Positions 2,935-62,926 are shown, counted from the stretch's first letter. The stretch: DNA of 64,000 nucleotides from an uncultured bacterium (GCA_964619725.1 CAZUFC010000003.1:49763-113762); one strand, 5' to 3'. Made by a program: numbers and translations. Notes: a model not told the origin generated them from the letters alone.

Positions 2935-2950
2935 TGGCACGGCAGTTGCT
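2935..2950 (+). promoter_or_regulatory. sigma54 (-24/-12) promoter
   Basis: TGGCAC-GGCAG-TTGCT is an exact match to TGGCAC-N5-TTGCW, ~70 nt upstream of the ATG at 3020 (SD AAGGAGG). Confidence 0.85.
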
Positions 2951-39719: not shown

Positions 39720-39807
39720 AAAAGGGCAAAATCAGGATTTCACTGACAGAAAGAAATCCGAATATCGGCGGGAAATTGATAGACCGCGGAACGAGGTGAC
39801 GAACCCA

Positions 39808-41613: not shown

Positions 41614-41630
41614 GCTTTCGGGAGATTATT

Positions 41631-42734
41631 ATGCTGAGTTTGACGACTCTTTTATCTGTTTTGCTGGAGAAGAAGGCTACGGATTTACATATAACGACAG
41701 GCGTCTGTCCGCATTTAAGAATAGACGGCATACTGCATCCGTTGTCTCAATTTCCCGTTCTGGGGCCCAAAGATACCAAGCAACTGGCTTACAGTATTTT
41801 AACCGACGTTCAGAAACACAAGTTGGAAGCGGATAAGGAATTGGACTTTTCATTCGGGATAAGAGGATTGAGCCGCTTTCGCGCCAACGTATTCATGCAG
41901 CGCGGGGCTGTGGCTATGGCCATCAGAACCATCCCTTTCCGCATACCCAGTTTTGAAGAGTTGGGTTTGCCCAGGGTTATCTCTGATTTGGCTCATAAGC
42001 CTAAAGGGCTCATACTGGTGACAGGTCCGACCGGATGCGGGAAATCGACTACTCTGGCGGCCATCATTGACAAAATCAACCGAGAGAAAAAATTACATGT
42101 CGTAACGATAGAAGACCCGATCGAATATCTGCATCAGCATCACGGGTGCGTGGTTAATCAGAGAGAAATCCTGGCCGACACGAAATCATTCGCCGCCGCT
42201 CTTCGATCTATTCTCAGGCAAGACCCGGACGTGATACTCGTCGGAGAGATGAGAGACCTGGAAACCATTCAGGCCGCTTTGCGATGCGCTGAAACCGGTC
42301 ACCTTACCTTCGCCACGCTCCACACCAACTCAACCGTCGAAACGGTCAACCGTATTATCGATGTTTTTCCGCCTCATCAGCAACAGCAAATTCGCACCCA
42401 GTTGTCATTCGTCCTCGAAGGCATCGTCTGTCAAACGCTCCTCCCCAGAAGAAGCGGTAAAGGCCGCGTCCTCGCTCTTGAAATTATGTGCCCCAACGAT
42501 GCCATCAGAAATCTGGTCAGAGAAGACAAGATTCATCAAATTTATTCCATTATGCAGATGGGACAGGATCGATACGGGATGGTCACTTTTAATCAGTCTT
42601 TGCTTGCGCTCTATTTAAGAAAACAGATTTCCCTCCAGGAAGCCAGAAATAGAACGATGAAACCCCAGGAATTCGAGCAAATGTTGCTGAAATCCGGAGA
42701 GACTCAGGTTTCTTCTCGCCATAGAAGAATTTGA
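41631..42734 (+). CDS. pilT: Type IV pilus retraction ATPase PilT
   Basis: GPTGCGKST, EDPIE, LRQDPD, AETGHL, AIRNLVRE. Confidence 0.96.
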   Translation: MLSLTTLLSVLLEKKATDLHITTGVCPHLRIDGILHPLSQFPVLGPKDTKQLAYSILTDVQKHKLEADKELDFSFGIRGLSRFRANVFMQRGAVAMAIRTIPFRIPSFEELGLPRVISDLAHKPKGLILVTGPTGCGKSTTLAAIIDKINREKKLHVVTIEDPIEYLHQHHGCVVNQREILADTKSFAAALRSILRQDPDVILVGEMRDLETIQAALRCAETGHLTFATLHTNSTVETVNRIIDVFPPHQQQQIRTQLSFVLEGIVCQTLLPRRSGKGRVLALEIMCPNDAIRNLVREDKIHQIYSIMQMGQDRYGMVTFNQSLLALYLRKQISLQEARNRTMKPQEFEQMLLKSGETQVSSRHRRI

Positions 42735-42807
42735 CATTTTTTAACAGAGGACAAGACTTTGTTTAGAAAACAATTCCTTTCAAATCTTTAGATGGAGGAA
42801 AATCAAA

Positions 42808-44022
42808 ATGGCCGAATTCAAATGGATCGGTAAGGATCAGACCGGTAAGGAAGTAAAAGGAGTCATGTCGGCCGAAACCTCCGATCAAGTTAAACTCCAA
42901 TTGCGCCGACAGAAAATAGAGCCCGTCAATGTTAAGAAGAGATTGAAGGACATTCAGATTGTTATTCCGGGACTGTCTTATCGTATTACGGAGAGAGATC
43001 TGGTGGTTTTTACCCGAACCTTTTCCACAATGGTCGATGCCGGGCTTCCGCTGGTGCAATGCCTGGAAATCCTTTCACAGCAGACGGAGAACCCGGTTTT
43101 CGCCAAGGCGATCAATGATATTCGACAAAATGTCGAATCCGGAAGTACATACGCCGATGCTTTGCGTAAACATCCCAAAATTTTCAATGAATTGTATTGC
43201 AATATGGTGGAAGCGGGCGAAACGGGCGGTATTCTCGACACTATCTTGAACCGACTTGCCTCATACATGGAAAAAAATATATCGTTGAAGCGACAGGTCA
43301 AATCCGCACTGGTTTATCCCGGATTCATCATCACGGCTGCAGTGATCGTTATTTCATTCATGATGTACTATGTGATACCGACTTTTACCCAGATTTTCGT
43401 CCAGTTGGGCAGCACGCTTCCTTTGCCGACGAAAATAGTTATGGGCATCTCTTCCGTAGTCAAATCGTATATTCACTTTTTCATCTTGGGCATCATATTG
43501 ATCATTTTGGGCATTCGAGCGATTCACAAGCGGGAGAAAGGCGCATTGTTCATTGACGGACTTCTTTTAAAATTACCGGTTCTGGGCTCGTTGTTCAGAA
43601 AAGTCGCTGTCGCCAAGTTCACGAGAACTCTGGGAACTCTCATCAGTTCGGGCGTTTCCATCCTCGATGGTCTGGAAATTACGGCGAAAACGTCAGGAAA
43701 TAAAGTCGTTGAGGAAGCCGTGATGAAAACGCGTGTCAGCATTAGCGAAGGAAAAACCATTTCCGAACCATTGGCTCAGACCGAAGTCTTTCCTCCCATG
43801 GTCGTTCAGATGATTGCCGTGGGAGAATCTACCGGTGCGCTGGATTCCATGTTGGAAAAAATTGCAGACTTTTACGATGAAGAAGTCGATGTGGCCGTCG
43901 CTAATCTTACGCAGTTGCTGGAACCGTTTATGGTGGTTTTTCTGGGGGTTACCGTAGGCGGCATCGTCGTCGCCATGTACATGCCGCTGTTTAAATTAAT
44001 CGGCGAGTTGTCCATGCGCTGA
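42808..44022 (+). CDS. pilC: Type IV pilus inner-membrane platform PilC
   Basis: Two T2SSF repeats (AGLPL...AGETGG; FPPMV...VGESTG), AMYMP. Confidence 0.95.
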   Translation: MAEFKWIGKDQTGKEVKGVMSAETSDQVKLQLRRQKIEPVNVKKRLKDIQIVIPGLSYRITERDLVVFTRTFSTMVDAGLPLVQCLEILSQQTENPVFAKAINDIRQNVESGSTYADALRKHPKIFNELYCNMVEAGETGGILDTILNRLASYMEKNISLKRQVKSALVYPGFIITAAVIVISFMMYYVIPTFTQIFVQLGSTLPLPTKIVMGISSVVKSYIHFFILGIILIILGIRAIHKREKGALFIDGLLLKLPVLGSLFRKVAVAKFTRTLGTLISSGVSILDGLEITAKTSGNKVVEEAVMKTRVSISEGKTISEPLAQTEVFPPMVVQMIAVGESTGALDSMLEKIADFYDEEVDVAVANLTQLLEPFMVVFLGVTVGGIVVAMYMPLFKLIGELSMR

Positions 44023-44072
44023 TAATTTCTTCACGAAAAATTCCGGATCGAGGATGCACGTTTGTTTACAAC

Positions 44073-45836
44073 GTGATGGTTGATATCGATAGTGATCGAA
44101 AAAGAATACGGACATTAATCGCAGTCCGTGTCGTCGTCGCTCTTACACTTCTCCTGGGATCGGGAATACCTCTTTACATCGGGAGCGAATTCACTAAATC
44201 CGTATCGCTTATCCTGTTTAAATTCGTGTTCGTTATTTTCGCCGTTTCTCTGGTTTATTCCCTTTTATTAAACAGGATCAGGAGAGTTCTTTTTTTCGGT
44301 TGCATTCAGATTATCGTCGACGTTATTTTGGAATCGGTCATCGTTTTCTATACCGGTCAGACTGGCAGTCCTTTCACCATCCTATACATTTTTACAATTA
44401 TCTACGCCGGGATTATTCTCAGAAAACATTCCTGCTTCATCTTTGCTGCGCTCTGTTCGAGCATGTACGTCTGGATGGTCGCAGGAAAAATGCTGAATGT
44501 TCTTCCCTTGAAAGAGACCGTTTTCACTCATTTGAACGTCACGATGCCGGTTTCCGAGCTGGTTTATTTCACAATCGTCAATTTGATCGGCTTTTTTACC
44601 GTCGCTTATTTTACCGACTACATATCCGGAAAATTGGAACACACGGATAAACTGCTCAATCAGCAGATTTCTCTCGTCGGAGATTTGCAATCTCTAAGAT
44701 CGAATATACTGCAAAGTATGGCCAATGGCCTCATAACTCTGAACGGCAATGGAGAAATAGACCTCGTCAACAACGCTGGGGAGCGTATCCTCGGTTTGCG
44801 AGAAGAACAGCTCCAAAGAAAACTCATTGAAGAGATTTTTCCTGATTCTACGGCTGAAAAAATTAAAAATATAATTAAAAATTTGTCGCAATCAGGAGAG
44901 CTCAACGAAGAATTCGAATATATAAAGGAAGGCAAAAATATTCCTCTGGGGCTGGCGGCGTCTCCTCTGAAAGATGCCAGAGGAAGACAAGTCGGCGCGC
45001 TGATATTGCTCAATGATTTGACAAACAAAAAAGAGCTGGAGAAGCACAAGCAGGCGGCCGACCGGTGGGCTGCAGTTGCTGAACTCGCAGCCAACATGGC
45101 CCATGAAATCAGGAATCCCCTGGCCGCGATCAGCGGCAGCATTGAAGTCTTGCAGGAATCCATGAAGCTGGACGATACCGATACCCGGCTCATGGACATT
45201 ATTCTGCGCGAATCGAGCCGACTGAATACACTGATTTCAGACTTCCTGAATTACGCTAAACCGCCCGTACTTGAGAAAAACCAATGCGACCTTATTAAGC
45301 TGCTCAAAGAAACATCTACTCTCGCCGAATCGGATACTGGAAGGAAGAATCAATTGAAAATAATCAGCGATTACAGGATTTCTTCCTTGTATATTCCTCT
45401 TGATGCCAAGCAGATTAAACAGGTTTTCTGGAACTTGATTCGTAACGCTATGGAAGCCATGCCTGAAGGCGGAATTTTAAAAATTTCAGTCACTAAGGAA
45501 AAATATATTAATTCCTCTGACCAGCCTGCCAATTCCAGGGATAAATTTTTCGTCATAGGAGCCGATGCGATAGAGAATATGGAATATGCCTGCATTTCTT
45601 TTAAAGATAACGGGATAGGGATTTCCGAGGAGAATCTGAGTTCTATTTTTAATCCATTCACAAGCTTTAAAGAGAACGGATCGGGTTTGGGATTAGCCAT
45701 CTCATATCGTATAATAAAAGATCATGGAGGAAGGATTGCCGTTAAAAGCATCCCGAATGTCGGAACGGTTATTGATCTATTCCTTCCTTTGGAACAAACC
45801 GCCGAAATGCTGACGGCCGTTACCCAGGAGATTTGA
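44073..45836 (+). CDS. pilS: Sensor histidine kinase PilS
   Basis: Multi-TM N-terminus (TG..SPF), PAS, AHEIRNPL, NLIRNA, DNGIGI, GSGLGL; synteny between pilC and pilR. Confidence 0.88.
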   Translation: MMVDIDSDRKRIRTLIAVRVVVALTLLLGSGIPLYIGSEFTKSVSLILFKFVFVIFAVSLVYSLLLNRIRRVLFFGCIQIIVDVILESVIVFYTGQTGSPFTILYIFTIIYAGIILRKHSCFIFAALCSSMYVWMVAGKMLNVLPLKETVFTHLNVTMPVSELVYFTIVNLIGFFTVAYFTDYISGKLEHTDKLLNQQISLVGDLQSLRSNILQSMANGLITLNGNGEIDLVNNAGERILGLREEQLQRKLIEEIFPDSTAEKIKNIIKNLSQSGELNEEFEYIKEGKNIPLGLAASPLKDARGRQVGALILLNDLTNKKELEKHKQAADRWAAVAELAANMAHEIRNPLAAISGSIEVLQESMKLDDTDTRLMDIILRESSRLNTLISDFLNYAKPPVLEKNQCDLIKLLKETSTLAESDTGRKNQLKIISDYRISSLYIPLDAKQIKQVFWNLIRNAMEAMPEGGILKISVTKEKYINSSDQPANSRDKFFVIGADAIENMEYACISFKDNGIGISEENLSSIFNPFTSFKENGSGLGLAISYRIIKDHGGRIAVKSIPNVGTVIDLFLPLEQTAEMLTAVTQEI

Positions 45837-47239
45837 TGGGAAAACTACTTGTCGTCGATGATGAGCCGAGCATCTGCGCTATGCTCAGCATAATGTTTGA
45901 GAAACAGGGACATTCGGTCAAATCATGCACCAGCGCTCAAAAAGCCCTCGCCTCTATCCAGGACGAAAATGAATTCGATGTTCTGATTTCCGATATCAAG
46001 ATGCCTGAAATGGATGGTCTGGAGCTTTTGAAGTCAGTTAAAAACATAAATCCCAATCTTCCGGTCATTTTAATTACGGCTCATGACAATAAAGAAACCG
46101 CCGTTTCCGCGTTGAAACACGGCGCCGAGGATTACATTGTTAAGCCTTGGAAAAAGGAGGAATTGAGGTTTCTGGTTGAGAGGGCCATTCGGAACCGTCG
46201 ACTGAAAGAAGAGAATTTGATTCTCAAGCAGGAATTACAAACGCATTATCGATTTGAAAATATTATCGGTAACAGCAAAAAAATTAGAAATATTTGGGGT
46301 ACGATAAGAAAAGTGGCGGACCTGGATGCCACTGTTCTGATTACGGGCGAAAGCGGTACCGGAAAAGAGCTCATAGCATCGGCCATTCATTATGCAGGAG
46401 CCCGAAAAGAGAAGCCTTTCGTCACCGTCAATTGCGGCGCTTTACCTGAAAGCCTGCTTGAATCGGAACTTTTCGGACATAAAAAAGGAGCTTTTACAGG
46501 CGCTTATCAGAATAAGCCGGGTTTATGCGAAGTGGCGCATACCGGGACAGTGTTTCTTGATGAAATCGGTGAAATAAGTCCCTCATTTCAGATAAAACTG
46601 CTCCGTTTCCTCAACGATAAAAAGTTGAAAAGATTGGGCAGCGTGGACGACATTACCGTGGACGTCAGAGTTATAGCCGCTACAAATAAAGACCTCCAGG
46701 CCGCAGTAAACGAGGATAAATTCCGCCAGGACCTCTTCTATCGGCTGAACGTCATTCCTATACACGTGCCGCCGCTGAGGGAAAGGAAGGAAGATGTTCC
46801 TCTTCTCGCCGAATTTTTTCTTCAAAAATATTGTGAAAGATGTCGATGTGAATTGAAAAGATGTTCTTCAGAAGCCATAAATCTCATGATAGAATACAAA
46901 TGGCCGGGCAATGTGAGGGAACTGGAAAACGTCATCGAAAGAACGGTGGCTTTGGAACCGAAGCCTTTGATCATTCCGGAAAGTCTGCCTCCGGAGATTC
47001 GTCAAGCCGGCAGAAAAAAATATTATTCGATAAACGATATAGAAAAAGAACCGGCCAGTCTTGACGATATTCTCAGCAATATTGAGAAGAATATTCTGGT
47101 CGATGCGTTAAAGAAAACCGACGGGGTAAAAATGAAAGCCGCAGAATATTTGAAGATCAGTTTCCGTTCATTAAGATATCGGTTGCAAAAACACGGATTA
47201 GGCGATAACAATAACGTCGATGAAACGAAGGAGTTATAG
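45836..47239 (+). CDS. pilR: sigma54-dependent response regulator PilR
   Basis: REC (VDD, SDIKMP), GESGTGKE, GAFTGA, FLDEI, WPGNVREL, HTH ISFRSLRYRL; TGATG coupling to pilS. Confidence 0.9.
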   Translation: MGKLLVVDDEPSICAMLSIMFEKQGHSVKSCTSAQKALASIQDENEFDVLISDIKMPEMDGLELLKSVKNINPNLPVILITAHDNKETAVSALKHGAEDYIVKPWKKEELRFLVERAIRNRRLKEENLILKQELQTHYRFENIIGNSKKIRNIWGTIRKVADLDATVLITGESGTGKELIASAIHYAGARKEKPFVTVNCGALPESLLESELFGHKKGAFTGAYQNKPGLCEVAHTGTVFLDEIGEISPSFQIKLLRFLNDKKLKRLGSVDDITVDVRVIAATNKDLQAAVNEDKFRQDLFYRLNVIPIHVPPLRERKEDVPLLAEFFLQKYCERCRCELKRCSSEAINLMIEYKWPGNVRELENVIERTVALEPKPLIIPESLPPEIRQAGRKKYYSINDIEKEPASLDDILSNIEKNILVDALKKTDGVKMKAAEYLKISFRSLRYRLQKHGLGDNNNVDETKEL

Positions 47240-49486: not shown

Positions 49487-49699
49487 TCAAAATTTTCCGA
49501 GTCATTCCCTCCAGAGAAACATAGGATTCCTGCAAATTAATGTCAAAGGGCAGAAAAGTGTGAAACAGAAAAATTACACGTTCGCGTAAAGTTACCCCTC
49601 TGCAGAACTGAATCTGCAAAAAAAGCGACTCCCTTTAAATCTTCTTGCTTGTTTAATGCAGGGCACGCAACCCGTTGATGAAAATCTTTACCGGTTTAT

Positions 49700-50581
49700 T
49701 TATTCTTCCGGAGCCAATCCTTTCTCAATCAAAAATGAAAGGTCTTCCGTCTTTATTCTTCCAGAAGAACCGGAGCCGTTTCTGTAAATGTGTCTGATCG
49801 ACTTTTTCAATTCATTGATGTTGCCCGGCCAGGGATAATCCATCAATAATTGCATCGCTCCATCGGTGAATCCCCTCAATTCCTTGCCGTATTCCTGGTT
49901 GAATATCTGAGTGAAACGGTTGACCAGATGAGGAATGTCGTTGACGCGCTCACGCAAAGGCAATAATTTGAAATCCAATACATTTAACCGGACGTAAAGT
50001 TCCCTGTTCATCATTCCCGTATCGACAAGCTTCGATAAATCGTCCGTTGTGCTGCCTATCACTCGATACTTATCCGTTATCGATCGTTTGGAAAGTCCCC
50101 TCAAATGATCCAGGAAATAAATAGTCGTCTTCTGAAAATCAGCTTCCAGATGCTCGATGCCGTCCAGATAAATCGTCACTAGTTTGTCCAGGTAACCGGC
50201 TGCAGGCGGATTGTAAAAATAATCCGTTTCGATTTTTATTATCCCTTTACGCTCGTATCTTTTTAATAGCTCCATGGACAAAGTCTGACGCTCATGGACA
50301 TGCTGCAATATCTTCTCCTTCTCCCTTGAAGGCAATTCCTTGCACATCTTCCTGCATGAAACGTCCACAAAATGTTTTTTCGGCGCCGCACTCTGATTAT
50401 GAATAACACGCGCTAAAAGTTTCTTGCCTGTTCCCACTTCGCCATACAGCATCAACGGTCCGTCAATGCGCTTCGAAATGTCGGCAAATTCCACCATCTT
50501 CTCGATGAATTTCGTGCTTCCCAGAATGTCCTTTACCGTATAACCGTCCCTTCGCTTTTTCGTTTTCCGCACTTTGTTCAT
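49700..50581 (-). CDS. Degenerate sigma54-activator-like AAA+ domain without GAFTGA, sensor or HTH (pseudo-bEBP)
   Basis: GEVGTGKK Walker A, LYVRLN, PLRER, YPWPGN retained; Walker B LDGIE, sensor II GNINEL, no GAFTGA. Confidence 0.85.
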   Translation of the reverse strand: MNKVRKTKKRRDGYTVKDILGSTKFIEKMVEFADISKRIDGPLMLYGEVGTGKKLLARVIHNQSAAPKKHFVDVSCRKMCKELPSREKEKILQHVHERQTLSMELLKRYERKGIIKIETDYFYNPPAAGYLDKLVTIYLDGIEHLEADFQKTTIYFLDHLRGLSKRSITDKYRVIGSTTDDLSKLVDTGMMNRELYVRLNVLDFKLLPLRERVNDIPHLVNRFTQIFNQEYGKELRGFTDGAMQLLMDYPWPGNINELKKSIRHIYRNGSGSSGRIKTEDLSFLIEKGLAPEE

Positions 50582-50688
50582 AACCTTTGCTTCCTTTCCT
50601 ATTGCTTCATCGATGCCGACGTACCCTTCTACTGTTCCTCATCAAACGAATACTCATAAAAATCTTCGCTCAATCGAAAATTATCCTT

Positions 50689-50946
50689 TTAAAATAATTC
50701 CAACGGAACTACAAAATTAAAAAGCTCTTCCCAGAATCCAGCAGGAGCATATCCGCCGTCCCCTTCTTCCTCTTCGTCTCCCGTATCACCGGATGAATTG
50801 TCTCCGTTTCCCTGATCGTCATAATTGGAAGGATCCATTGATAATGCTCCCCCTCCGTCAGCATAAATGCTCTCCAAAGCTCCTCCGACAAGGCAAATCA
50901 CCAGCATTGCCGTCATTACGGAAATTATAAGTTTGTAATCTCTCAC
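50689..50946 (-). CDS. 85-aa exported acidic peptide
   Basis: GTG behind AGGGGGA; signal peptide (IYA|D); D/G/E-rich middle; amphipathic C-terminus FWEELFNFVVPLELF; preceded by a sigma54 promoter. Confidence 0.7.
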   Translation of the reverse strand: MRDYKLIISVMTAMLVICLVGGALESIYADGGGALSMDPSNYDDQGNGDNSSGDTGDEEEEGDGGYAPAGFWEELFNFVVPLELF

Positions 50947-51025
50947 AGCATCTTCCCCCTTTCAGGAACTCCTTTGTTTGTCGGTTTTTTCATTTTTTGA
51001 AATTGAAAATCCCGTCTATGCTAAA

Positions 51026-51041
51026 AGCAATAACTGTACCA
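51026..51041 (-). promoter_or_regulatory. sigma54 (-24/-12) promoter
   Basis: Minus strand TGGTAC-AGTTA-TTGCT, correct GG-N10-GC spacing, ~80 nt upstream of the peptide gene. Confidence 0.8.
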
Positions 51042-51254
51042 ACAGCAAAAAAAGAGTTAAAAAGACTGAAAAAACAATGACTTAATAAAAAGACGCGTTT
51101 CCAGAGTCTTAAAATGAAAATTTCTGCCTCCATCATCAAGCAAAAGAACGTTACAAAAATTTATTCAAGTTATTGAATTTAAAGGGAAACGAATAAAAAG
51201 AACAAAACTTTACAATGTCACAAAATATAACATTTATAAAAAGAATTCATGGAC

Positions 51255-54200
51255 TCAATGTTGCTTTTTGGGCCAGGGAATTCTGTATTCTTCCATTTTT
51301 CTGTCAAGCGTCGGTCGAGAAATGCCAAGGACTCTGGCAGCATCAATTTTTCTCCAACGAAGTTTTTTGAGAGTTCTTTGGATGTGTTTTTTTTCCATTT
51401 CAGCGAGAGAAAAGAGTTCATGCTCTTCTGTTTCGTCGACTTCTTCAACGGAGACGTTTTTAATACGAGGCGGAAGGTCTTTTCTTTTGATGAGCGGCGG
51501 TTTTCCGTAGACGACGGCGAATTCGACAACGTTTTCTAGGTCTCTGACATTCCCAGGCCAATTATATTTTTTAAGGCATGTAATGGCTTCTCTGGTAAAG
51601 CCCTTGAACATTTTATTCATGCGTTTCATTTTTCTGGCGAGGAATTCAGCAGCAAGGATGGGGATGTCGTCTTTTCTTTCCCGGAGAGGGGGAAGCCGCA
51701 GGGGTAGCACATTGATGCGGTAGAAGAGGTCTTCCCTGAAATTACCATTTTTGACTTCTTTGATGAGGTCTTTGTTGGTAGCGGTAATGATACGGACGTC
51801 GACTTTACGTTTTTTACCGGCGCCGAGCTTTTGAATTTCTCCGTCATTGAGCGCTCTGAGCAATTTTGATTGAACGATGAAATTCAACTCAGCGATTTCA
51901 TCGAGGAAGAGCGTGCCGCCGTCAGCGATTTCGAAGGCTCCTTTTTGATCTCTGTAAGCGCCGGTAAAGGAGCCTTTGACATGTCCGAAAATCTGGGATT
52001 CGAGCAATGATTCCGGAATAGCGGCGCAGTTAACAGGGTGAAAAGGTTTATCTCTTCTGGCGCTGTTCAGGTGAATGGCTCTGGCGAAAAGGTCCTTGCC
52101 TGTGCCCATTTCTCCTTCAATGAGGACCGTAGAATCGCTTTGAGAAATGTTGGGCAATTGTTTAAAAAGGTCCAGCATTTTTTTGCTGTTTCCGATGATA
52201 AGGTTCTGATAGCTGTATTTTTGTTCCACGTTCTTTTTGAACAGGAGGAATTCTTCCTGTTGCTGCTTGTAATAATTCGATCTGTCGATGGCGACCGCGG
52301 CAAGATTGGCGAAAGCGGAAAGAAAATCCCTGTCTCTTTCGCTGAACAAGTCCTGACTTTTTCTGCTGTCGACGTAAATAGTACCGATGATTTTATTTTC
52401 GATGAACATAGGGACGCACAGAAGCGACAATATATTGTACATCTGAACGCTTCTGAATCTGAAGAAACGTTCGTCCGACAGGGCATTGTTTGAGAATAAG
52501 GGTTCATTTTTTTCGAGTGTGGAGCGGACGATGTTTCTGCTGTAGTCCTTGGCGTCCTCCATGGTTTTAGGGTCCAGATTCTTGGTAACCTGAGGATAAA
52601 GTTCACCGCTGCTGTCGTCCAAAAGAAATATCATGCCTCTTTCGGCTCCCACAAAACGAATGGCCTGTTCCAATATACGTTCCAGCAGGTCTTCCGGCTC
52701 GGTTAAAGAATTAAGAATCGAAGCGATCTGAGAAAAAGTGTCGAGCAGCACGTAAACGTCTGTTTGCGTTTTAGTCTGCATCTCGCTTTCAATTTTTTTC
52801 ACCAGCCCCTGAGCTTTAGCCAGCTCCGATTGAGCTTCCAGACGCTGGAAATTGTCGACAGCATTTTTGGAAAATCTCAACGCTTTTTCATAATCCTTCA
52901 ATTCTATAAAAAGATTGGCGAATGTTAAATAAACGCGACTCAATCCCGCCACCGAATCCAGTTCCTGGAAAAATTTGAGCGCTTTATCCAGGTCGCTTCT
53001 GGCTTTATTGAACTGCTTCTGTTTCAGCCGGATTTTTCCGAGAAGATGATGGATTTCAGAAGATTCCATTTTATGGCCGACTTGCTCAGCAAGCTCAAGC
53101 GCCTTATCGCATAAATCAACGGCCTGATCCACATCATCCTGCGCCAGCTTTACCTCTGCCAGTATCCTCGTGTTCTTCGCCAGATTCTTGCCGGCCTCCA
53201 TTTCACTGTAGAGGTTGATCGATTTGTTGAGGAACTTTTCGGCCAGGGGATATTCGCCTTTCTCTTTGTATATGTTGCCGATATGCGAAAAACAATCCGC
53301 CATGCCGCCCTGATCCTTGGAACGAATCCAGATTTCCAGGCTCTCGTTGAAAAACTTCAACGCATCATCCCAGCGTCCTGTTCGCTGCTTCAGAAAACCC
53401 AAATTTAAAAGATTTCGCGCTATCTCAATGTGCTGATTATACTTCTCCGCCAAACTCAGCGCCTTCCTGAAACAGCTCTCCGCTTTTTTCCACTGTCCTA
53501 TATCCTCGAACAACAGTCCGAGATTGGTGTTGGAACTTATGATCAGGCGGTGATCGTTCATTTTTTGGCCGATCATTATGGCCAAATTGAAAAATTCCTC
53601 AGCCTTCGCCACTTCGCCCAGTTCCCGATGTGTGTTGGCTAAAAATTGATAGATTTTCGCCAGTTGAAAAAAATTCCCCGTTTTATGGAATATCTCCAGG
53701 CTGTAATTAAAGTGTTCGAGAGCTTGATGATACTGACTTTTTTTGAAAAAAACCAGTCCCAAATTTAAATAATTCACCGCCCGTACATCGATATTCTTGT
53801 TCGCATCCAACAAAGAAAGAGCCTGACGATAAGTGTCCCTCGCATCATCAAGTTTTCCCAGAGAAAGATAAGCGCTTCCCATAGCATTATATATTTTGCT
53901 CTTCTGAAGGTCCATCTGCTTTTGACTTTTGACCTTGCTGAGCGTCTCTTCGCATATTTCCAACGCTTGATCGATTTCCCTTTTTTCAATATGCTGCCAG
54001 GCTAAATCCATCTTTAATGAAACGCCTGTTCGACTCTTGCTCCAATCGGGAAGAACCTCCAATCCCTTCTCCATAATTTCTCTGGCTTTTTCCGCGTTCC
54101 CTTTTCTTTTTTGCAGCCTGGCAAGATTCATGTAGAGAGAACTGATTTTCTCCGCGGAAAATTTGCGGTTTTTAACTATCTGAAGAGCCTTATTGTAAGC

Positions 54201-56564
54201 ATCTTCCGACTCGCTGTACCGCCCCGTTCGTCCCAGTAACTGGCCCATGGATTTCAGCGCCTCAAATTTGTGTTTCAGCGCTCCTTTTTTCCTCATCATT
54301 TCCAGGGACCACTGATAATAGGTCAATGCCTGCTGGATATTATAAATCGACGCAGACTGATGACCGGCTCTCAGCGCATACAACGCCCCCTTCTGATAAT
54401 TGTTCGAATGGTAATGATGGTAAGCTAGGTCTCCCGCCTTCTTCTCCTGATCCTCTTGAGTCTTCTTCTCATAATATTTGGCGACTCTTTTGTGGTACAA
54501 TTCTCTCGTTTTTTTATCAATCGCCGAATAGATGTATTCTTTCATCGGAAGATAACTGAACCTGTATCTTAAATCGCCGTTGGCGGATACCGTCGTGATC
54601 AGTCGCCGGTTCATCAGCTTCGAGAGACTTTCCAATACCAGGTAGGAATCGATGTTGGCCAAACCCACTATGTCCTCCACCGTGAAATCGCCCCTCAATA
54701 CTGAAGCATGACGAAGCAATTCCCAATCCGTTTTGAATAAACCCTCCAGACGTCCCTCCATCGATTGCTGTAAAGATTGTGGAATTTTATGCTGCTTGGA
54801 TTTTCCGGATTGAAATATCCAGCTTTCCCCACGTAACTCGATGACTCCCTTCTCGATCATTGAATAGAGTATCTCTTCAACAAAAAGAGGATTGCCGCTT
54901 GTCGCCTTGTACGCCTCATCCGTTATCACTTCTTCAAAATTCGCAGCGCCGAGCATCGACGAAAGCATCTCCTGCGTGCTCTTTTTGTCGAAAGGTTCAA
55001 GGTTCACCACGTTCGAATACAAATCCTCGCTATGAACCGACTCTCTTCCCGGCGAACCCATGCCCGAACGCGTTTCGAAATAATCGTCGTCCATTGTCGC
55101 CAGTAACATTAAATGACAACGATCCTCCTTGTCAGTGTAATCCTCGTAGCGGTTCAACGTGTTCAAAAAATACTTCAGATAATCCAGGCTGCTCTGATCA
55201 GAAAAATGAATATCCTCTACCGCCAACACCAGCGGATCTACGCCGTTCTGAGGGTCCACGATTCTTTTAGTCATCTCCCAGATAAAATGAGATAAACTCT
55301 CAAAGAGAAGTATCTTGTCCTTTTCAGATTTGATCTCTAACGGCTGATTCCGCAAAGATGCCTCTTCACTCTCGTAAAATTCCGGCGCCAAACGGCTCAA
55401 TTGTACCTTGTACTTTTCAAGTATGCCGGATGCCTCAGCCCCCAAATACTTGACCATCTGATTCAGCAATTCAACTATCGTCTGATAAGCTTTGTCTTCA
55501 TCATGATGACAAACGCTCTTGAAAATCCGCGCTCCTCCTATCTGCACCTCGCGCTCAAACTCATTAAGAAGCCGCGTCTTCCCGACGCCGAACTCTCCCT
55601 TTATAAGACAGGATTGAGGCTTATTGTTCTTTACTTCCGATAAATACCGCTGAAGAGCCGAAAACTCCTCTTCGCGACCGATGAAACTGCTGTAAAATCT
55701 GAAAGTCGTCGGAGTCAGTATACGCTTCGCTTTCATCGGAGTCACCAAATCTCCCAGAACCTCAGTCGCATGCCGATATCGGAGAGCCGGGTCCTTCGCC
55801 AGCAATTTCTGAATCACCCCACTTAAACGCTGGGGCACCTCCTCGTTTATCTCTCGCGGCGGCGAAACCTCCTTTTCCAAATGCGCCATGCCCGTCTTTA
55901 ACGGCGTATCCATCAAAAAAGGATTCTTCCCCGTCACCAGCTCATAAGCTACTACTCCCAGTGAATATAAATCCGCTCGCTGATCCACCGGCTTGTTCGA
56001 AAAATATTCCGGCGCCGTATACCCTAAATTGCCGCGCAGCGTCGAAGCCCCCTTCTTCTGACTTAAAAGCTTGAACCAGCCCGCATGACCGAAATCCACC
56101 AGCTTCACGCTGTATGAACGACGGGCTTCGCCCGCTCCTGAATTCTGAAGCAATATGTTCCCCGGATTTATGTCGCCGTGAATTATACCCAACCTGTGCA
56201 TGTAAGACAACGCCTGGCATATCTGGACCATTAAACGGGAAAATAAAAAATAATCTGGCCGCCGCGCCTCAATCGCTTCCGTCATCTTCGGACCCTTGAT
56301 ATGCTCCATCGTGAAAAATACCCGGTAGCCGCTCAATATCCCGCCTCGATAAAAATCAAACGCACGCACGATGTTGGGATGACGTAATTGTGACAATATG
56401 CGATACTCGTTCTCCAGCGCCTTCACTTCTTCTTCCTCCACCGCCGTCTTCAGTATCGCCTCGCGCTCCTCGTAATCATCCCGAACAAGATAAAGATTGC
56501 CCCATCCCCCCTGGTCAATCTGCTCGATTATCTTGTATCTGCCCCCTAATATCACGCTTTCCAT
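51255..56564 (-). CDS. Giant sigma54 activator: Ser/Thr kinase - AAA (STAND-like) ATPase - TPR array - GAF - sigma54 AAA+ - Fis HTH
   Basis: Kinase HGDINPGN/DFG/APE; GEFGVGKT + AVEDIH; long TPR array; GAF (AERG..LLCVPM..GTIYVDS); GEMGTGKD, GSFTGA, FLDEI, WPGNVRDL; AARVLGISRPTLDRKM. Confidence 0.92.
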   Translation of the reverse strand: MESVILGGRYKIIEQIDQGGWGNLYLVRDDYEEREAILKTAVEEEEVKALENEYRILSQLRHPNIVRAFDFYRGGILSGYRVFFTMEHIKGPKMTEAIEARRPDYFLFSRLMVQICQALSYMHRLGIIHGDINPGNILLQNSGAGEARRSYSVKLVDFGHAGWFKLLSQKKGASTLRGNLGYTAPEYFSNKPVDQRADLYSLGVVAYELVTGKNPFLMDTPLKTGMAHLEKEVSPPREINEEVPQRLSGVIQKLLAKDPALRYRHATEVLGDLVTPMKAKRILTPTTFRFYSSFIGREEEFSALQRYLSEVKNNKPQSCLIKGEFGVGKTRLLNEFEREVQIGGARIFKSVCHHDEDKAYQTIVELLNQMVKYLGAEASGILEKYKVQLSRLAPEFYESEEASLRNQPLEIKSEKDKILLFESLSHFIWEMTKRIVDPQNGVDPLVLAVEDIHFSDQSSLDYLKYFLNTLNRYEDYTDKEDRCHLMLLATMDDDYFETRSGMGSPGRESVHSEDLYSNVVNLEPFDKKSTQEMLSSMLGAANFEEVITDEAYKATSGNPLFVEEILYSMIEKGVIELRGESWIFQSGKSKQHKIPQSLQQSMEGRLEGLFKTDWELLRHASVLRGDFTVEDIVGLANIDSYLVLESLSKLMNRRLITTVSANGDLRYRFSYLPMKEYIYSAIDKKTRELYHKRVAKYYEKKTQEDQEKKAGDLAYHHYHSNNYQKGALYALRAGHQSASIYNIQQALTYYQWSLEMMRKKGALKHKFEALKSMGQLLGRTGRYSESEDAYNKALQIVKNRKFSAEKISSLYMNLARLQKRKGNAEKAREIMEKGLEVLPDWSKSRTGVSLKMDLAWQHIEKREIDQALEICEETLSKVKSQKQMDLQKSKIYNAMGSAYLSLGKLDDARDTYRQALSLLDANKNIDVRAVNYLNLGLVFFKKSQYHQALEHFNYSLEIFHKTGNFFQLAKIYQFLANTHRELGEVAKAEEFFNLAIMIGQKMNDHRLIISSNTNLGLLFEDIGQWKKAESCFRKALSLAEKYNQHIEIARNLLNLGFLKQRTGRWDDALKFFNESLEIWIRSKDQGGMADCFSHIGNIYKEKGEYPLAEKFLNKSINLYSEMEAGKNLAKNTRILAEVKLAQDDVDQAVDLCDKALELAEQVGHKMESSEIHHLLGKIRLKQKQFNKARSDLDKALKFFQELDSVAGLSRVYLTFANLFIELKDYEKALRFSKNAVDNFQRLEAQSELAKAQGLVKKIESEMQTKTQTDVYVLLDTFSQIASILNSLTEPEDLLERILEQAIRFVGAERGMIFLLDDSSGELYPQVTKNLDPKTMEDAKDYSRNIVRSTLEKNEPLFSNNALSDERFFRFRSVQMYNILSLLCVPMFIENKIIGTIYVDSRKSQDLFSERDRDFLSAFANLAAVAIDRSNYYKQQQEEFLLFKKNVEQKYSYQNLIIGNSKKMLDLFKQLPNISQSDSTVLIEGEMGTGKDLFARAIHLNSARRDKPFHPVNCAAIPESLLESQIFGHVKGSFTGAYRDQKGAFEIADGGTLFLDEIAELNFIVQSKLLRALNDGEIQKLGAGKKRKVDVRIITATNKDLIKEVKNGNFREDLFYRINVLPLRLPPLRERKDDIPILAAEFLARKMKRMNKMFKGFTREAITCLKKYNWPGNVRDLENVVEFAVVYGKPPLIKRKDLPPRIKNVSVEEVDETEEHELFSLAEMEKKHIQRTLKKLRWRKIDAARVLGISRPTLDRKMEEYRIPWPKKQH

Positions 56565-59144: not shown

Positions 59145-59377
59145 TCAAGCCTCCTTTTGCTTTTCCGTATTTACCATAAAAAGAACCTTTTTTTCCAGAA
59201 ACTCTGATTGTTACCCGACAACAGGAATTTTGGAGACTGAGGAAACAGGGATGACTATTTTGACGAATCACTTCTTTTCTTTTCCGTGATATCTGCAGCG
59301 GCAGAGTCTCTGTCTTCCTTTCCAGAATGCTGTGCATTTTAATCACCACGAAATTTCGTTACTCAAAGAAGGGATAT

Positions 59378-59393
59378 TGGTACATATTTTGCT
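59378..59393 (+). promoter_or_regulatory. sigma54 (-24/-12) promoter
   Basis: TGGTAC-ATATT-TTGCT, ~90 nt upstream of ATG 59485. Confidence 0.7.
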
Positions 59394-59484: not shown

Positions 59485-60060
59485 ATGGTGAAAACGAAAA
59501 ATCTCTGCAAAAAAGAGGAAATCGACAGCATTGAAAAATGCCGGAAAAAACTTTTTTCAAAGCAAAAAGTAAGAACTGACGAACTGGAGGAGGCTATGGT
59601 TTATCTGGCTCACGAAGGTTCGGATGAGGCAGTTTCGCTTTTAAAGGAGTATGGAAAGAATGTGCCGGAGAATTTGAAGTATTTTTACGACTGTGCTTAC
59701 GATGAAGCGGCATATTTTAATTTCGTGGAGAAAACGCAGGACATGAAAATTAAAGTGGAAACGCCCAAAAATTTCAAACCGGAAGAGAACGGGGAGAAAC
59801 TGGAGCAGTTGGAGAGAGACTGTCGTTCCATTGAGGAGCGTCTGGCGGAAAAGGGCATTATCGTTTCATTATGCGAAAAACTGCCGGTTGAGCTGAGGAA
59901 AAAATATGTGGAAAAACTGGATGAATTGCTGAAGGGATTTCGATTTAAATCTGATGGATTCATTCATTTCGACGGCTGTTCCGGATACTGCGAAGAATGT
60001 TTTCAGTTCCAGTGGTGCGATGTTGCTGCAGAAATTATGGGCAGCAGCCGTCTTATGTAG
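59485..60060 (+). CDS. Hypothetical protein with C-terminal four-Cys motif
   Basis: SD GGAGGTG; C-terminal HFDGCSGYCEECFQFQWC. Confidence 0.75.
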   Translation: MVKTKNLCKKEEIDSIEKCRKKLFSKQKVRTDELEEAMVYLAHEGSDEAVSLLKEYGKNVPENLKYFYDCAYDEAAYFNFVEKTQDMKIKVETPKNFKPEENGEKLEQLERDCRSIEERLAEKGIIVSLCEKLPVELRKKYVEKLDELLKGFRFKSDGFIHFDGCSGYCEECFQFQWCDVAAEIMGSSRLM

Positions 60061-60156: not shown

Positions 60157-60274
60157 ATTAAACGTTTGACTTTTTAAGCTTCGAAGCGCTAAATAAGAAA
60201 AGGTGAAAAGGTCAAATAGTCATTGCAACAAGAGTCGATTTTCAATGAACCGCAAACATCAAAGGAATAAAAAA

Positions 60275-62926
60275 ATGCGAAGAGTATGCATTATTTCTGC
60301 AATTTTGTCGACGTTTTTCGTCGGCGCAGGTATGAGTCGGGGAATAACGCCCGAGACTATAGGAGTCATAATAAATGAAGTTTATTATGATGCGCCGGGG
60401 ACGGATACGGGATATGAGTTTGTCGAATTGTACAACAATGCGCCCGATGCAGTGGATATGACGGGATATGTATTAGCGATGAACGACCGTTATACGTTTG
60501 GAAGTTATGTCCTGCCGGCTTACACGTATGTGGTGATACACAACAACGCCGACGCGCCGGACGAGGAGTTTGATCTTTACACGGGACCGGGTTTCGACAA
60601 TATGGGTGACAGTCACGCCAGCGTGGCGTTGTTTACGGGGGCTCCTGGAAGCAGCACCATAATAGATTTTCTTCAGTATGGGGAAGGCGACGGGGAGACC
60701 TGGGAGTCTGCGGCGGTGAGCGCAGGCATATGGACTGAAGGCGATTACGTGGATGACGTTGAGCCGGGGTATTCGATCAATTTGTACCCTGATCATCAGG
60801 ATAACGATACGCCGGAGGACTGGACGGACTGCATCCCGTCGGCGCATTACAGCAACTGTACGATTGAGCCGACGCCGGAGGGAAGTCCAACGCCGGAACC
60901 GACGATTACGCCGACTCCCACGTCATCGGGAACGCCCGGACCGTCGCCGACGCCTTATATTTATTCGCCAACGCCGTTTCCCACCCCGACACCCTGTATA
61001 TGCGGCGGACTAATCCTGAATGAAGTGATGTGCAACGCCGATGAGAACGACAACGATTTTGTCGAAATCATCAATTGTTCAATGGAAGCCGTCGATGTCG
61101 CTGACCCTCAAGTTTACATATCGGAAGAAGATTCCGACGCTGCGCCCGATAAATTGCTGCCTTTCTATTCAGGCGGAAATACCGTTATTCCGCCTCAGGG
61201 TTTCGGCGTTATATTGGACCCGAATCAGGAAGATTTTTATGACGTTCCTGAAGACGCCGTGCTGTTGAAGACGGATGATGACAGTATAGCGGACGCTAAC
61301 ATCAGTTGTGATGAAGTAATAGTTTTATGTTACGGTGCAACCGGCCAGGAATGCGAGGATTCGATTTTTTCGACATACGGAGGATACAACAGTCCCGCTA
61401 CGGCTCAATCCGTCGAAAGAACCGACCCCTGTGCAGACGATGAACCGGACAACTGGAATAATTCTTCATGCGAACCCTCTTCTACCGGCCGACATTCCAT
61501 AGGAGCTGCCAACTGTCCGCCAGTGGGACTGATTCCGCCGGGTTATTTGAACATTACCGAGGTTTGCCCCAAACCCGGAGAGACGGAAGGCGGAGGAAAT
61601 TGCTCGGAATTTATAGAAATACTTAATTGTTCCGATGAAACGATTGACTTGAGAAACGTTCTGCTGACCGACGGTGAGACTGACGGACCGGACGGACCGC
61701 TTATTTTCAATCTCCTGGTCCCTGTCTATCCGGATGAGAATCCATACCTGGAACCCGGGGAAATGGCCGTAATTCTGCAGGAAAGCTATTTTGAAACCGC
61801 GGATATATTTACCGATGGAGAATACTCCGACACCATCTGTCAGACCGGCACGAAACTTTTAACGACCGATTCCGGTTCTCTGACTAAGAACGGGATGGCC
61901 GAAGCCAATCCCTACCTGCTGTTGAATACGGATTTTTCTCGCATCTCCACTTACCTGTTTCCGGTCTCTCATGAGACGGGCAATTCTATCGAGAGAATCG
62001 ATCTTTGCGGTCCTGATACGGATGGCGCCTGGGCCGTCACTGCAGCCGATCAGCAAAAATGCGGACGCCATTCATGCGGAAGATGGAATACGGTCAGCCC
62101 TCCTGCGCCCTCAGACGCCCCCAGAATACTGATGGGCGGTTACATGGATTCGGAAATCTCGGAAAGATACGGCGGAGTGTTGAACCTGACCGCCATAGCC
62201 ATGGACCCGGACGGAGCTGAAACCATCGATTACATCGATATTCTGTTTTCAGGAATTTCCTATGGCTTCCACATGCCTCTTGTTGAAATTATTCCCCTGG
62301 ATGACATATCTTTTTCCAATATAGCCCTCTATTCGGTCGATTTCGCTGTACCGCCGGGCGCCGCTCCTTCCCATTTTTCCTTTTCGCTGATTCCTTACGA
62401 TGATGAAGGACATGTCGGAATCGAATGGCCATTTTTCCATATTAGGGGTACGGAATCCATTTGTCCTCCCTATAGTTACTCTTTCGCTCCGCCGGAATTC
62501 CACAGCCCGCTTAACTTTTACGCCTGCAGCAGCCAAACTCCCTCTGTCGGAGACGTTCTCTGCGGTTTCTCTGATCCTAAAATCCTCCTGGCCGGATACT
62601 GGACCACTGATTTAAACGCTATAACTTCATGCCGCCTGCAAATGGTCGCTGCCGCTCAACCCGCTCCAGGAAGAAGAATCGTTAAAGTCGAAATCTATTT
62701 TGCAGGATTGCCCACAGGCGTCTGTTTGCAGGATTTCGGCTTCTCTTCGGATGCGGACCTGGAATTCCTCGATGCACCCAACGACAATATCTTCGGCATT
62801 GAAATACCCCTGCAGCCTGGAGACTTGGAATATGAGGAGAATAATAGATATGCCCTGGGACTGGCAGCAGTAGACGATTTAGGAAATAAAAGCGCTATAT
62901 GGCCGCTCAGTCCGATTAATTTCTAA
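60275..62926 (+). CDS. Secreted protein with three lamin-tail domains, Pro/Thr linker and tandem C-terminal repeats
   Basis: Signal peptide; IINEVYYD..EFVELYN, ILNEVMCN..DFVEIIN, NITEVCP..EFIEILN; PTPTP linker; PRILMGGY / PKILLAGY repeats. ORF track start 60203. Confidence 0.85.
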   Translation: MRRVCIISAILSTFFVGAGMSRGITPETIGVIINEVYYDAPGTDTGYEFVELYNNAPDAVDMTGYVLAMNDRYTFGSYVLPAYTYVVIHNNADAPDEEFDLYTGPGFDNMGDSHASVALFTGAPGSSTIIDFLQYGEGDGETWESAAVSAGIWTEGDYVDDVEPGYSINLYPDHQDNDTPEDWTDCIPSAHYSNCTIEPTPEGSPTPEPTITPTPTSSGTPGPSPTPYIYSPTPFPTPTPCICGGLILNEVMCNADENDNDFVEIINCSMEAVDVADPQVYISEEDSDAAPDKLLPFYSGGNTVIPPQGFGVILDPNQEDFYDVPEDAVLLKTDDDSIADANISCDEVIVLCYGATGQECEDSIFSTYGGYNSPATAQSVERTDPCADDEPDNWNNSSCEPSSTGRHSIGAANCPPVGLIPPGYLNITEVCPKPGETEGGGNCSEFIEILNCSDETIDLRNVLLTDGETDGPDGPLIFNLLVPVYPDENPYLEPGEMAVILQESYFETADIFTDGEYSDTICQTGTKLLTTDSGSLTKNGMAEANPYLLLNTDFSRISTYLFPVSHETGNSIERIDLCGPDTDGAWAVTAADQQKCGRHSCGRWNTVSPPAPSDAPRILMGGYMDSEISERYGGVLNLTAIAMDPDGAETIDYIDILFSGISYGFHMPLVEIIPLDDISFSNIALYSVDFAVPPGAAPSHFSFSLIPYDDEGHVGIEWPFFHIRGTESICPPYSYSFAPPEFHSPLNFYACSSQTPSVGDVLCGFSDPKILLAGYWTTDLNAITSCRLQMVAAAQPAPGRRIVKVEIYFAGLPTGVCLQDFGFSSDADLEFLDAPNDNIFGIEIPLQPGDLEYEENNRYALGLAAVDDLGNKSAIWPLSPINF

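Follow-up and report, generated by a model that had tools for sequence, protein, structure and literature searches.

A kinase-STAND-TPR-GAF enhancer-binding protein beside a sigma54-type promoter, a putative exported-peptide gene and a stand-alone AAA+ gene in an uncultured bacterium

What does a very large regulator control when its gene is followed, on the same strand, by a sigma54-type promoter, a gene for a small peptide with an apparent export signal and a gene for a stand-alone AAA+ protein? We examined such a locus in a stretch of 64,000 nucleotides from an uncultured bacterium (GCA_964619725.1, CAZUFC010000003.1:49763-113762), here called the window, in which all positions are counted from its first nucleotide. 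The regulator, referred to below as the giant, has kinase, STAND, TPR, GAF, sigma54-type AAA+ and helix-turn-helix (HTH) domains in a single chain. The reading that we favour, and consider rather probable, is that the giant activates the adjacent sigma54 promoter of an operon for the peptide and for a decoy, the stand-alone AAA+ protein, and that the decoy probably feeds back on the giant.

Anatomy of the locus

Calling of open reading frames (ORFs) returned three co-oriented genes on the minus strand, at exactly the coordinates claimed in an earlier interpretation made without knowledge of the source, the sequence-only reading (Table 1). For the giant, matches to Pfam models were obtained for a kinase domain (Pkinase, residues 10-267, 137 bits), a P-loop domain (AAA_16, 294-472, 76.9 bits against a cut-off of 32.6), an array of TPR units at about 735-1270 that was recognized by many families (TPR_12 with 202.7 bits and, for a MalT-like region, TPR_MalT with 116.5 bits), a GAF domain (1290-1426, 67.7 bits), a sigma54-interaction domain (Sigma54_activat, PF00158, 1456-1622, 233.8 bits) and a C-terminus consisting of AAA_lid_14 followed by HTH_8 (1719-1760, 45.8 bits). 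The sigma54-contact loop reads GSFTGA, a variant that is also present in many homologues. The translation and the alignment gave GEMGTGKD as Walker A and LFLDEI as Walker B of the sigma54 AAA+ domain, and both motifs are retained in both P-loop modules of the translated chain. Judged by its domains, the giant belongs to the bacterial enhancer-binding proteins (bEBPs), with an AAA+ domain, a GAFTGA-type loop and an HTH in a genome that encodes sigma54 (one rpoN, a Sigma54_DBD match of 210 bits on contig C28), and it is likewise a STAND NTPase, with an AAA_16 P-loop followed by a repeat sensor.

The best NCBIfam match of the giant was the nifA model (TIGR01817, 391.6 bits over residues 1275-1726); since this score is below the cut-off of 528.85, the output module is NifA-like and the protein is not NifA. 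Assignment to the TOMM kinase/cyclase fusions (TIGR03903) was rejected at 203.5 bits against a cut-off of 705.75. Full-length relatives with 25-33% identity were found in many uncultured lineages of several phyla, and proteins of about 500 residues with the order GAF-AAA-HTH match the C-terminal part at 40-48% identity. The catalytic loop of the kinase domain, HGDINPGN (residues ~125-140, window positions 56100-56200), lacks the Arg of HRD and the Lys of DxKxxN; the VAIK-Lys, DFG and APE can be read in the translation. The kinase may be non-RD or inactive. The split form of a giant was seen in a metagenome-assembled genome of Planctomycetota (L132:8816-15944), where a 1383-residue kinase-STAND-TPR protein is followed by a 977-residue sigma54 AAA+ protein.

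The sigma54 promoter that had been proposed downstream of the giant proved to be an exact match to the -24/-12 consensus, TGGTACAGTTATTGCT, located 214 nucleotides past the stop codon of the giant and about 80 nucleotides upstream of the GTG start of the small ORF. Exact matches to TGGYAC-N5-TTGCW are rare by chance: three are present in the window, where 0.03 are expected, and three or more were seen in 0 of 100 shuffles. Between the stop codon of the giant and the promoter there is a sole perfect palindrome with arms of 6 nucleotides, about 120 nucleotides upstream of the -24 element, in an AT-rich region; it is a weak candidate for an activator site.

The 85-residue ORF with a start resembling a signal peptide was confirmed as well, the leader being judged by eye. 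Its GTG codon is preceded at a distance of 7-8 nucleotides by a purine-rich run similar to a Shine-Dalgarno sequence. The N-terminus is basic and continues with 19 hydrophobic residues up to a cleavage site predicted by eye at IYA/D. The mature part would comprise about 40 residues rich in Gly, Asp, Glu, Ser and Asn and a tail of about 16 residues that is hydrophobic or amphipathic, with a net charge, read from the translation, of about 16 negative. A lipoprotein was considered and rejected, as by eye the residues preceding the sole Cys are unlike a lipobox. Codon usage was compared by log-odds for which 1389 long ORFs of this genome served as the training set. The small ORF scored 0.13 in frame, with -0.37 to -0.69 for the five alternative frames, and only 0.05% of the off-frame windows of the same length from long ORFs scored above it; the giant and the third gene scored 0.176 and 0.131. 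By this measure the frame looks coding. The peptide belongs to no family in Pfam, NCBIfam or PADLOC, and neither a relative in 5.8 billion protein clusters nor a paralogue in the host genome was found.

The third gene begins 107 nucleotides past the small ORF, and the interval showed no terminator-like or sigma70-like site on this strand. It encodes a protein of 293 residues in which the Sigma54_activat match (PF00158, 67.2 bits) is split into segments at 20-83 and from about 136, followed by AAA_lid_14 at 210-286 (67.4 bits). The protein keeps an intact Walker A (GEVGTGKK) and has no G[AS][FY]T[GD]A motif; in alignments of 57 and 9 rows, a longer and unrelated insert takes the place of the GAFTGA segment. 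Walker B reads IYLDGI rather than hhhhDE, with Gly at position 141, where at least 90% of the 57 aligned proteins have Glu, and at the first Arg finger position 192 is Asn, with an Arg adjacent, where at least 90% of them have Arg. The protein has no HTH_8 match and its chain ends about 10 residues past the lid domain. An AlphaFold2 model, for which the 57-row alignment with ordinary activators was used, reached a mean predicted local distance difference test score (pLDDT) of 85.7 and a predicted template modelling score of 0.84, with three helices and a short strand in the insert; a run with the single sequence gave a pLDDT of 35. The best Foldseek matches of the model were the AAA+ domains of NtrC1, FleQ, FlrC and PspF (E values of 1e-13 to 1e-16). 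Taken by its motifs and its predicted structure, the protein is a folded AAA+ domain of the bEBP clade that is expected to lack sigma54 contact, ATP hydrolysis and DNA binding.

The sequence-only reading had described the third gene as a broken, activator-like AAA gene. The activator-like AAA domain without GAFTGA stands, whereas the description as broken does not, the protein being intact and well-folding in the model. A pseudogene was rejected on the in-frame codon usage, the confident fold and the existence of a collinear relative. This relative, P0255 (288 residues), was the sole protein of the same build in a HMMER scan of 1.84 billion representatives; it aligns over 275 collinear residues with 4 gap positions and 30% identity (E value 8e-44), contains the same insert, and also lacks GAFTGA and an HTH. 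Because P0255 is collinear at 30% identity, including the insert, the 293-residue protein appears to be maintained rather than decaying, and the collinearity speaks for long maintenance of this type under selection. Other searches for its relatives returned only ordinary activators, with at most 36% identity (at most 33% in a word-indexed search), and a two-row profile run against 401 genomes retrieved no further member of the type, the best scores of about 140 bits belonging to ordinary activators of 400-500 residues. The ESM Atlas contains several clusters, with 55-333 members each, of proteins of 250-340 residues that have only sigma54-interaction and lid domains, one of them being commonest in Cyanobacteriota. 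Stand-alone sigma54-interaction domains of this kind are thus not unique.

Table 1. Positions of the locus components and of further sigma54-type promoter matches in the window
Feature	Position	Strand	Basis or remark
Giant regulator, 1769 aa	51255-56564	-	ORF call, translation, Pfam, NCBIfam
Candidate activator palindrome ATTCAA-N4-TTGAAT	51163-51178		Weak evidence
Sigma54 -24/-12 promoter TGGTACAGTTATTGCT	51041-51026	-	Exact consensus match
85-aa pre-peptide ORF, GTG start	50689-50946	-	Codon usage, translation read by eye
293-aa stand-alone AAA+ protein	49700-50581	-	Pfam, alignments, AlphaFold2, Foldseek
Second exact -24/-12 match TGGTACATATTTTGCT	59378-59393	+	~90 nt upstream of 191-aa ORF 59485-60060
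Third exact -24/-12 match TGGCACGGCAGTTGCT	2935-2950	+	~70 nt upstream of ORF 3020-4054

Recurrence downstream of related giants

To see how often such an arrangement is found elsewhere, we counted loci in which a homologue of the giant is followed downstream by 700 or more nucleotides of sequence, after five exact duplicates had been dropped. A sigma54-like site was defined by fixed GG and GC and a stated number of the 12 consensus positions, within the first 1 kb downstream of the giant. Sites with at least 9 of 12 positions were present on the same strand at 22 of the 61 loci, compared with 4 of 61 on the opposite strand. Among the 39 loci without a site, 26 belong to one tight metagenome clade (tree support 100, internal branches of at most 0.13). 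With this clade set aside, a split that was made post hoc after the result had been seen, the counts were 21/35 on the same strand versus 4/35 on the opposite strand, and shuffles gave a mean of 3.4 and a maximum of 9. At a threshold of at least 10 of 12 positions they were 14/35 and 3/35, with a shuffle mean of 0.38. The tight clade itself (L171-L202, 26 loci, giants of about 1770 residues) has neither a sigma54-like site nor a small ORF downstream. In this clade a gene for a Ser/Thr kinase of 816-825 residues is divergently transcribed upstream of the giant.

A small ORF, exported or leaderless, follows the giant in about nine deep lineages. Exported-type ORFs of 66-101 residues with a ribosome site were found in the window and at L043, L044/L045, L079/L167/L168, L169, L082, L088 and L208/L209/L210/L216; at L043 the ORF is present in two identical tandem copies. 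Sites with at least 9 of 12 positions precede the ORF in the window and at L044, L045, L079, L167/L168, L169, L208/L216, L209 and L210, the sites at L043 and L088 are weaker (8/12), and the small ORF at L082 has no clear site. The exported ORFs share a common design, in which a signal peptide ending in A/D, A/G or A/S is followed by a linker rich in Pro, Gly or acidic residues and by a hydrophobic or amphipathic tail. The small ORF most similar to the peptide of the window, that of L079, was matched with an E value of only 0.12. As judged from the alignments, what is conserved in the small ORFs is design and position, not detectable sequence.

The genes in this position were of several other kinds. 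Leaderless Pro-rich ORFs of 18-20 codons follow the giants of L091-L095. At four of these loci (L091, L092, L093 and L095, with giants of 1743 residues) the micro-ORF is located behind a sigma54-like site, in two copies in L093, with smpB as the next gene. A larger secreted protein is encoded behind a sigma54-like site at L049/L050/L051, L080 and L086/L089, and the remaining loci have a PP2C phosphatase or other genes after the giant and no sigma54-like site. The sigma54-driven exported proteins of 100 residues at L208/L209/L210/L216, where the giants have about 1720 residues, end in a repeated Cys motif, GVGGCxPRAGVGGCKL. The sigma54-contact loop of the giants also varies, being GAFTDA at L043/L044/L045 and L082 and KVATGV at L088.

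Spacers between giant and promoter were compared among relatives, in which paired palindromes are clearer than in the window and are kept between close relatives. The spacers of L079 and L167 contain two copies each of TGTAAA-N6-TTTACA, the palindrome GTCTCAAGTTGAGAC is common to those of L208 and L209, and the spacer of L082 has two copies of the 16-nucleotide palindrome TCGTACGATCGTACGA.

The third gene was variable. Besides the window, an AAA+ gene lacking both GAFTGA and an HTH follows the peptide gene at only two loci, L088 (237 residues, Walker A kept) and L082 (201 residues, Walker A lost; Sigma54_activ_2, 34.4 bits), and in the FastTree phylogeny of the giants these two and the window are far apart on long branches. 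At L079 a stand-alone gene for a 78-residue protein consisting only of a Fis-type HTH_8 domain (L079:6078-6311) is located right after the peptide gene, and its product may compete for the DNA sites of the activator. The third gene of L044/L045 encodes a PAS-receiver protein, and nothing comparable to the decoy was found at L043, L169 or L091-L095. The decoy is therefore a part of the unit that recurs but is not always present. Four peptide-bearing lineages have part of a bEBP output module encoded behind the peptide, either an AAA+ domain without the sigma54 loop or HTH_8 alone, and this is the best available hint of an action of the third gene product on the activator or its DNA sites.

The conserved synteny envisaged in the sequence-only reading was thus borne out in part: the sigma54-like site and the small ORF recur, and a GAFTGA-less AAA gene was found again at L088 and L082, but the decoy is rare and the third gene variable. 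Since the arrangement recurs across lineages, it is not a coincidence of this window.

The host assembly has a size of 9.17 Mb in 344 contigs, with 90.9% completeness and 6.5% contamination, and belongs to a phylum with 14 species genomes in the collection, none of which is closer than phylum level. The stretch 49600-52000 was present in three DNA runs, all of one microbial-mat study. The contigs from these runs had 0 differences, so that neither population variation nor the ratio of nonsynonymous to synonymous substitutions could be obtained. The genes upstream of the giant, for a 638-residue membrane protein and an ORF of 167 residues, were treated as unrelated; they have no Pfam family and are not near other giants. 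On the plus strand at 39796-47239 there is a type IV pilus set, with PilB-like, PilT-like and PilC-like proteins, a PilS-like kinase and a PilR-type activator; the set has its own sigma54 two-component pair, and two glycosyltransferase genes come next. The 191-residue ORF behind the second promoter match is without a family and is followed by the gene for a 907-residue protein with a Lamin-tail domain (60203-62926). Secreted proteins with a similar domain are the products of the sigma54-driven genes right after the giants in L086 and L089, so that the giant of the window might serve this second promoter too.

A proposed circuit and its alternatives

From the anatomy of the locus, its motifs and their recurrence we infer that the giant activates the promoter, that the two genes behind it are co-transcribed and that the decoy acts on the giant. 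Enhancer-binding proteins commonly act on adjacent promoters. The giant would be a cytoplasmic bEBP without a receiver domain, in which a GAF-AAA+-HTH engine is fused to a sensor of the PknK/MalT-like kinase-STAND-TPR type. A cue read by the TPR, GAF or kinase parts would cause the STAND module to oligomerise, which would bring the AAA+ domains together in an active ring at sites in the 214-nucleotide spacer, and this ring would open the promoter. The spacing of the two genes and the lack of a terminator between them suggest that the promoter drives a two-gene operon for the peptide and the 293-residue decoy. The first product would be a Sec-exported, cleaved and strongly acidic peptide with a hydrophobic tail, serving as an output and possibly also as a signal. 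The decoy probably still binds ATP and neighbouring subunits, and would be unable to touch sigma54, hydrolyse ATP or bind DNA; most likely it enters or caps the ring of the giant and damps it, resulting in negative feedback. In studies of PspF and NtrC, rings that are mixed with GAFTGA- or Walker B-defective subunits lose activity. The role of a dominant-negative brake, already put forward in the sequence-only reading, we infer from the missing motifs of the protein. Its suggestion of danger sensing found no support, as the matches returned by PADLOC were all generic, to a kinase (PD-T4-6) and to RtcR-type AAA-HTH domains, with none for the peptide.

Several observations weigh against this circuit. 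In the spacer of the window we saw one AT-rich palindrome only, and no upstream site that is convincingly repeated. The decoy is 34% identical to the AAA+ domain of its own giant versus 33-36% to other activators, and its gene is absent from most peptide-bearing loci. Across lineages, alignments gave no significant sequence similarity among the small ORFs, and the peptide-bearing giants are placed in several separate clades with long branches in the FastTree phylogeny. Because the positive loci include near-duplicates (L049/L050, L167/L168, L208/L216 and L044/L045) and the tight clade was set apart post hoc, the counts of sites overstate independence. No RNA runs were listed with the stretch 49600-52000. 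Furthermore, about 37 full Sigma54_activat matches are present in the host genome, so that another activator, including the PilR-type protein 4 kb away, could serve the promoter. This would make the genes coincidental neighbours, with the giant regulating distant genes. The two other exact matches indicate that sigma54 promoters are frequent in the window, and no clear upstream motif is shared between the spacer and the second promoter region (59145-59377), for which the comparison gave short AT-rich repeats only and was dropped. Both points fit such an explanation. We nevertheless consider it very improbable, since many lineages have a same-strand site right behind the giant, with few on the opposite strand or in shuffled sequence, and since close relatives (L079/L167 and L208/L209) retain paired palindromes in the spacer.

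The other alternatives concern the role of the peptide. In a loop of the RRNPP type, the exported pre-peptide would be trimmed outside the cell and its C-terminal tail re-imported to bind the TPR array, triggering STAND oligomerisation and the synthesis of more peptide, with the decoy limiting the burst. The 85-residue ORF starts 308 nucleotides past the stop codon of the TPR receptor and is within the range of 10-100 residues used for propeptides, and its apparent basic and hydrophobic leader and the information in its last residues fit the generic signature, in the part of the source available (PMC10075063). Moreover, all exported small ORFs have at the end of the mature part a hydrophobic or amphipathic stretch of 14-20 residues that includes acidic ones, and in the close pair L044/L045 the tails differ and the rest of the peptide is kept. 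The least conserved 60-residue windows of the giants were located in the late TPR region (1110-1226 in the giant of the window) in 4 of 6 close pairs, a comparison made without a null model for repeats that, as sensors, usually evolve faster than GAF and AAA+ domains. Binding of the peptide to the TPR array would be a conjecture by analogy, and a complex prediction for the TPR region (residues 730-1275 of the giant) and the mature peptide (residues 30-85) gave a score of 0.01, which speaks neither for nor against binding. Other features of the loci fit this loop poorly: the peptides of L091-L095 have no export signal, the locus contains no oligopeptide permease or processing protease, and a 1769-residue receptor with a bEBP output is unlike the RRNPP type of receptor. 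Giants of sister lineages drive secreted proteins of 320-830 residues from the same position, which cannot be re-imported ligands, so that a peptide acting as output fits at least as well as a ligand. On balance we regard the loop as doubtful. If the peptide is instead purely an output, it would be an envelope or extracellular effector of a mat dweller, for example membrane-anchored or cation-binding, without a signalling role, and the 293-residue protein would be a positive partner or scaffold of the ring of the giant or a partner of another AAA+ protein. The genes downstream of the giants always encode secreted products, of very different kinds, which agrees with this explanation, as do the strong negative charge of the mature peptide, the microbial-mat source of the metagenome and the wide occurrence of stand-alone sigma54 domains in the ESM Atlas, which need not brake a neighbouring activator. 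It is hard to reconcile with the bEBP output-module fragments that follow the peptide gene in four separate lineages unless these act on the activator or its DNA sites, and even as a scaffold, a protein that lacks the Walker B Glu and has its first Arg finger displaced would reduce the ATPase activity of the ring. We therefore hold a pure output to be unlikely. The activation of a peptide and decoy operon by the adjacent giant remains the reading that we prefer.

A more far-reaching proposal is that the locus represents a new class of peptide-sensing switch in diderm or candidate-phylum bacteria, with RRNPP-like logic operating on sigma54. The tail of the exported peptide would be the ligand of the TPR array, STAND oligomerisation would directly assemble the sigma54 ring, and a co-induced decoy, an AAA+ protein here and an HTH-only protein elsewhere, would provide the negative feedback. 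We put this forward tentatively, and think it improbable in this complete form.

Relation to known systems

The order of GAF, sigma54 AAA+ and Fis-type HTH domains in the C-terminal 500 residues of the giant is that of the GAF-type bEBPs NifA, NorR and FhlA. The giant differs from these by about 1270 additional N-terminal residues, which contain the kinase, STAND and TPR parts, by its GSFTGA loop, and by its proposed target, which would be a peptide operon rather than the nif, nor or hyc genes. The additional part has the same order of Pkinase, AAA_16 and TPR_MalT as STAND regulators of the PknK/MalT/LAL family, in which ligand-driven STAND oligomerisation controls transcription, and PknK was also present as a source name in the search for relatives of the giant. 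Whereas these regulators have a LuxR-type output that works with sigma70, the giant has a sigma54 AAA+ engine and thereby holds two different P-loop oligomerisation modules in one chain. A survey of kinase architectures does not contain the word sigma in the part of its text available (PMC1262709).

As in the RRNPP systems (Rap/Phr, NprR/NprX, PlcR/PapR, PrgX and Rgg/SHP), a gene for a small, apparently exported pre-peptide is located beside that of a cytoplasmic TPR regulator, and the hydrophobic C-terminal end is the variable part. The gene spacing is also within the range of RRNPP_detector, and known RRNPP systems are from Firmicutes and their mobile elements, both according to the portion of the source available (PMC10075063). 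The receptor differs in having STAND and bEBP modules and putative sigma54 control, and no HTH_3/XRE domain was found in it with Pfam.

The proposed action of the decoy resembles that in the pairs PspF-PspA, FleQ-FleN and NifA-NifL, where a product binding to the AAA+ domain shuts the activator off (for FleN and NifL as given in partial texts). In the Psp system, the activator drives the sigma54 operon that contains the gene of the inhibitor. The inhibitors in these pairs are unrelated to their activators, whereas the putative inhibitor described here is a crippled AAA+ paralogue. An AAA+ domain without the sigma54 contact loop is also a feature of bEBP homologues that work with sigma70, as TyrR and HupR do, and as VpsR and the NtrC of Caulobacter do according to partial texts. 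All four are transcription factors in which the sensor and the DNA-binding domain are retained; the 293-residue protein has neither domain.

In full-text searches of the literature, supplements apart, we found no description of a kinase-STAND-TPR-GAF bEBP with a peptide operon or an AAA+ decoy. A bEBP with an adjacent sigma54 target is a known situation; what is undescribed is the set of recurrent extras, namely the giant sensor, the exported peptide and the decoy module. bEBPs are normally switched by a receiver domain, a small-molecule sensor or a partner protein, and here the sigma54 engine is joined to a sensor of the MalT/PknK type. Should the decoy be a brake, the locus would offer a simple and testable case of a regulator that is restrained by a crippled paralogue from its own target operon. 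Should the peptide be sensed, cytoplasmic TPR-based peptide signalling would extend beyond the Firmicutes and be tied to sigma54. In both cases, small genes overlooked by annotation pipelines would, as a family, gain a regulator and a promoter.

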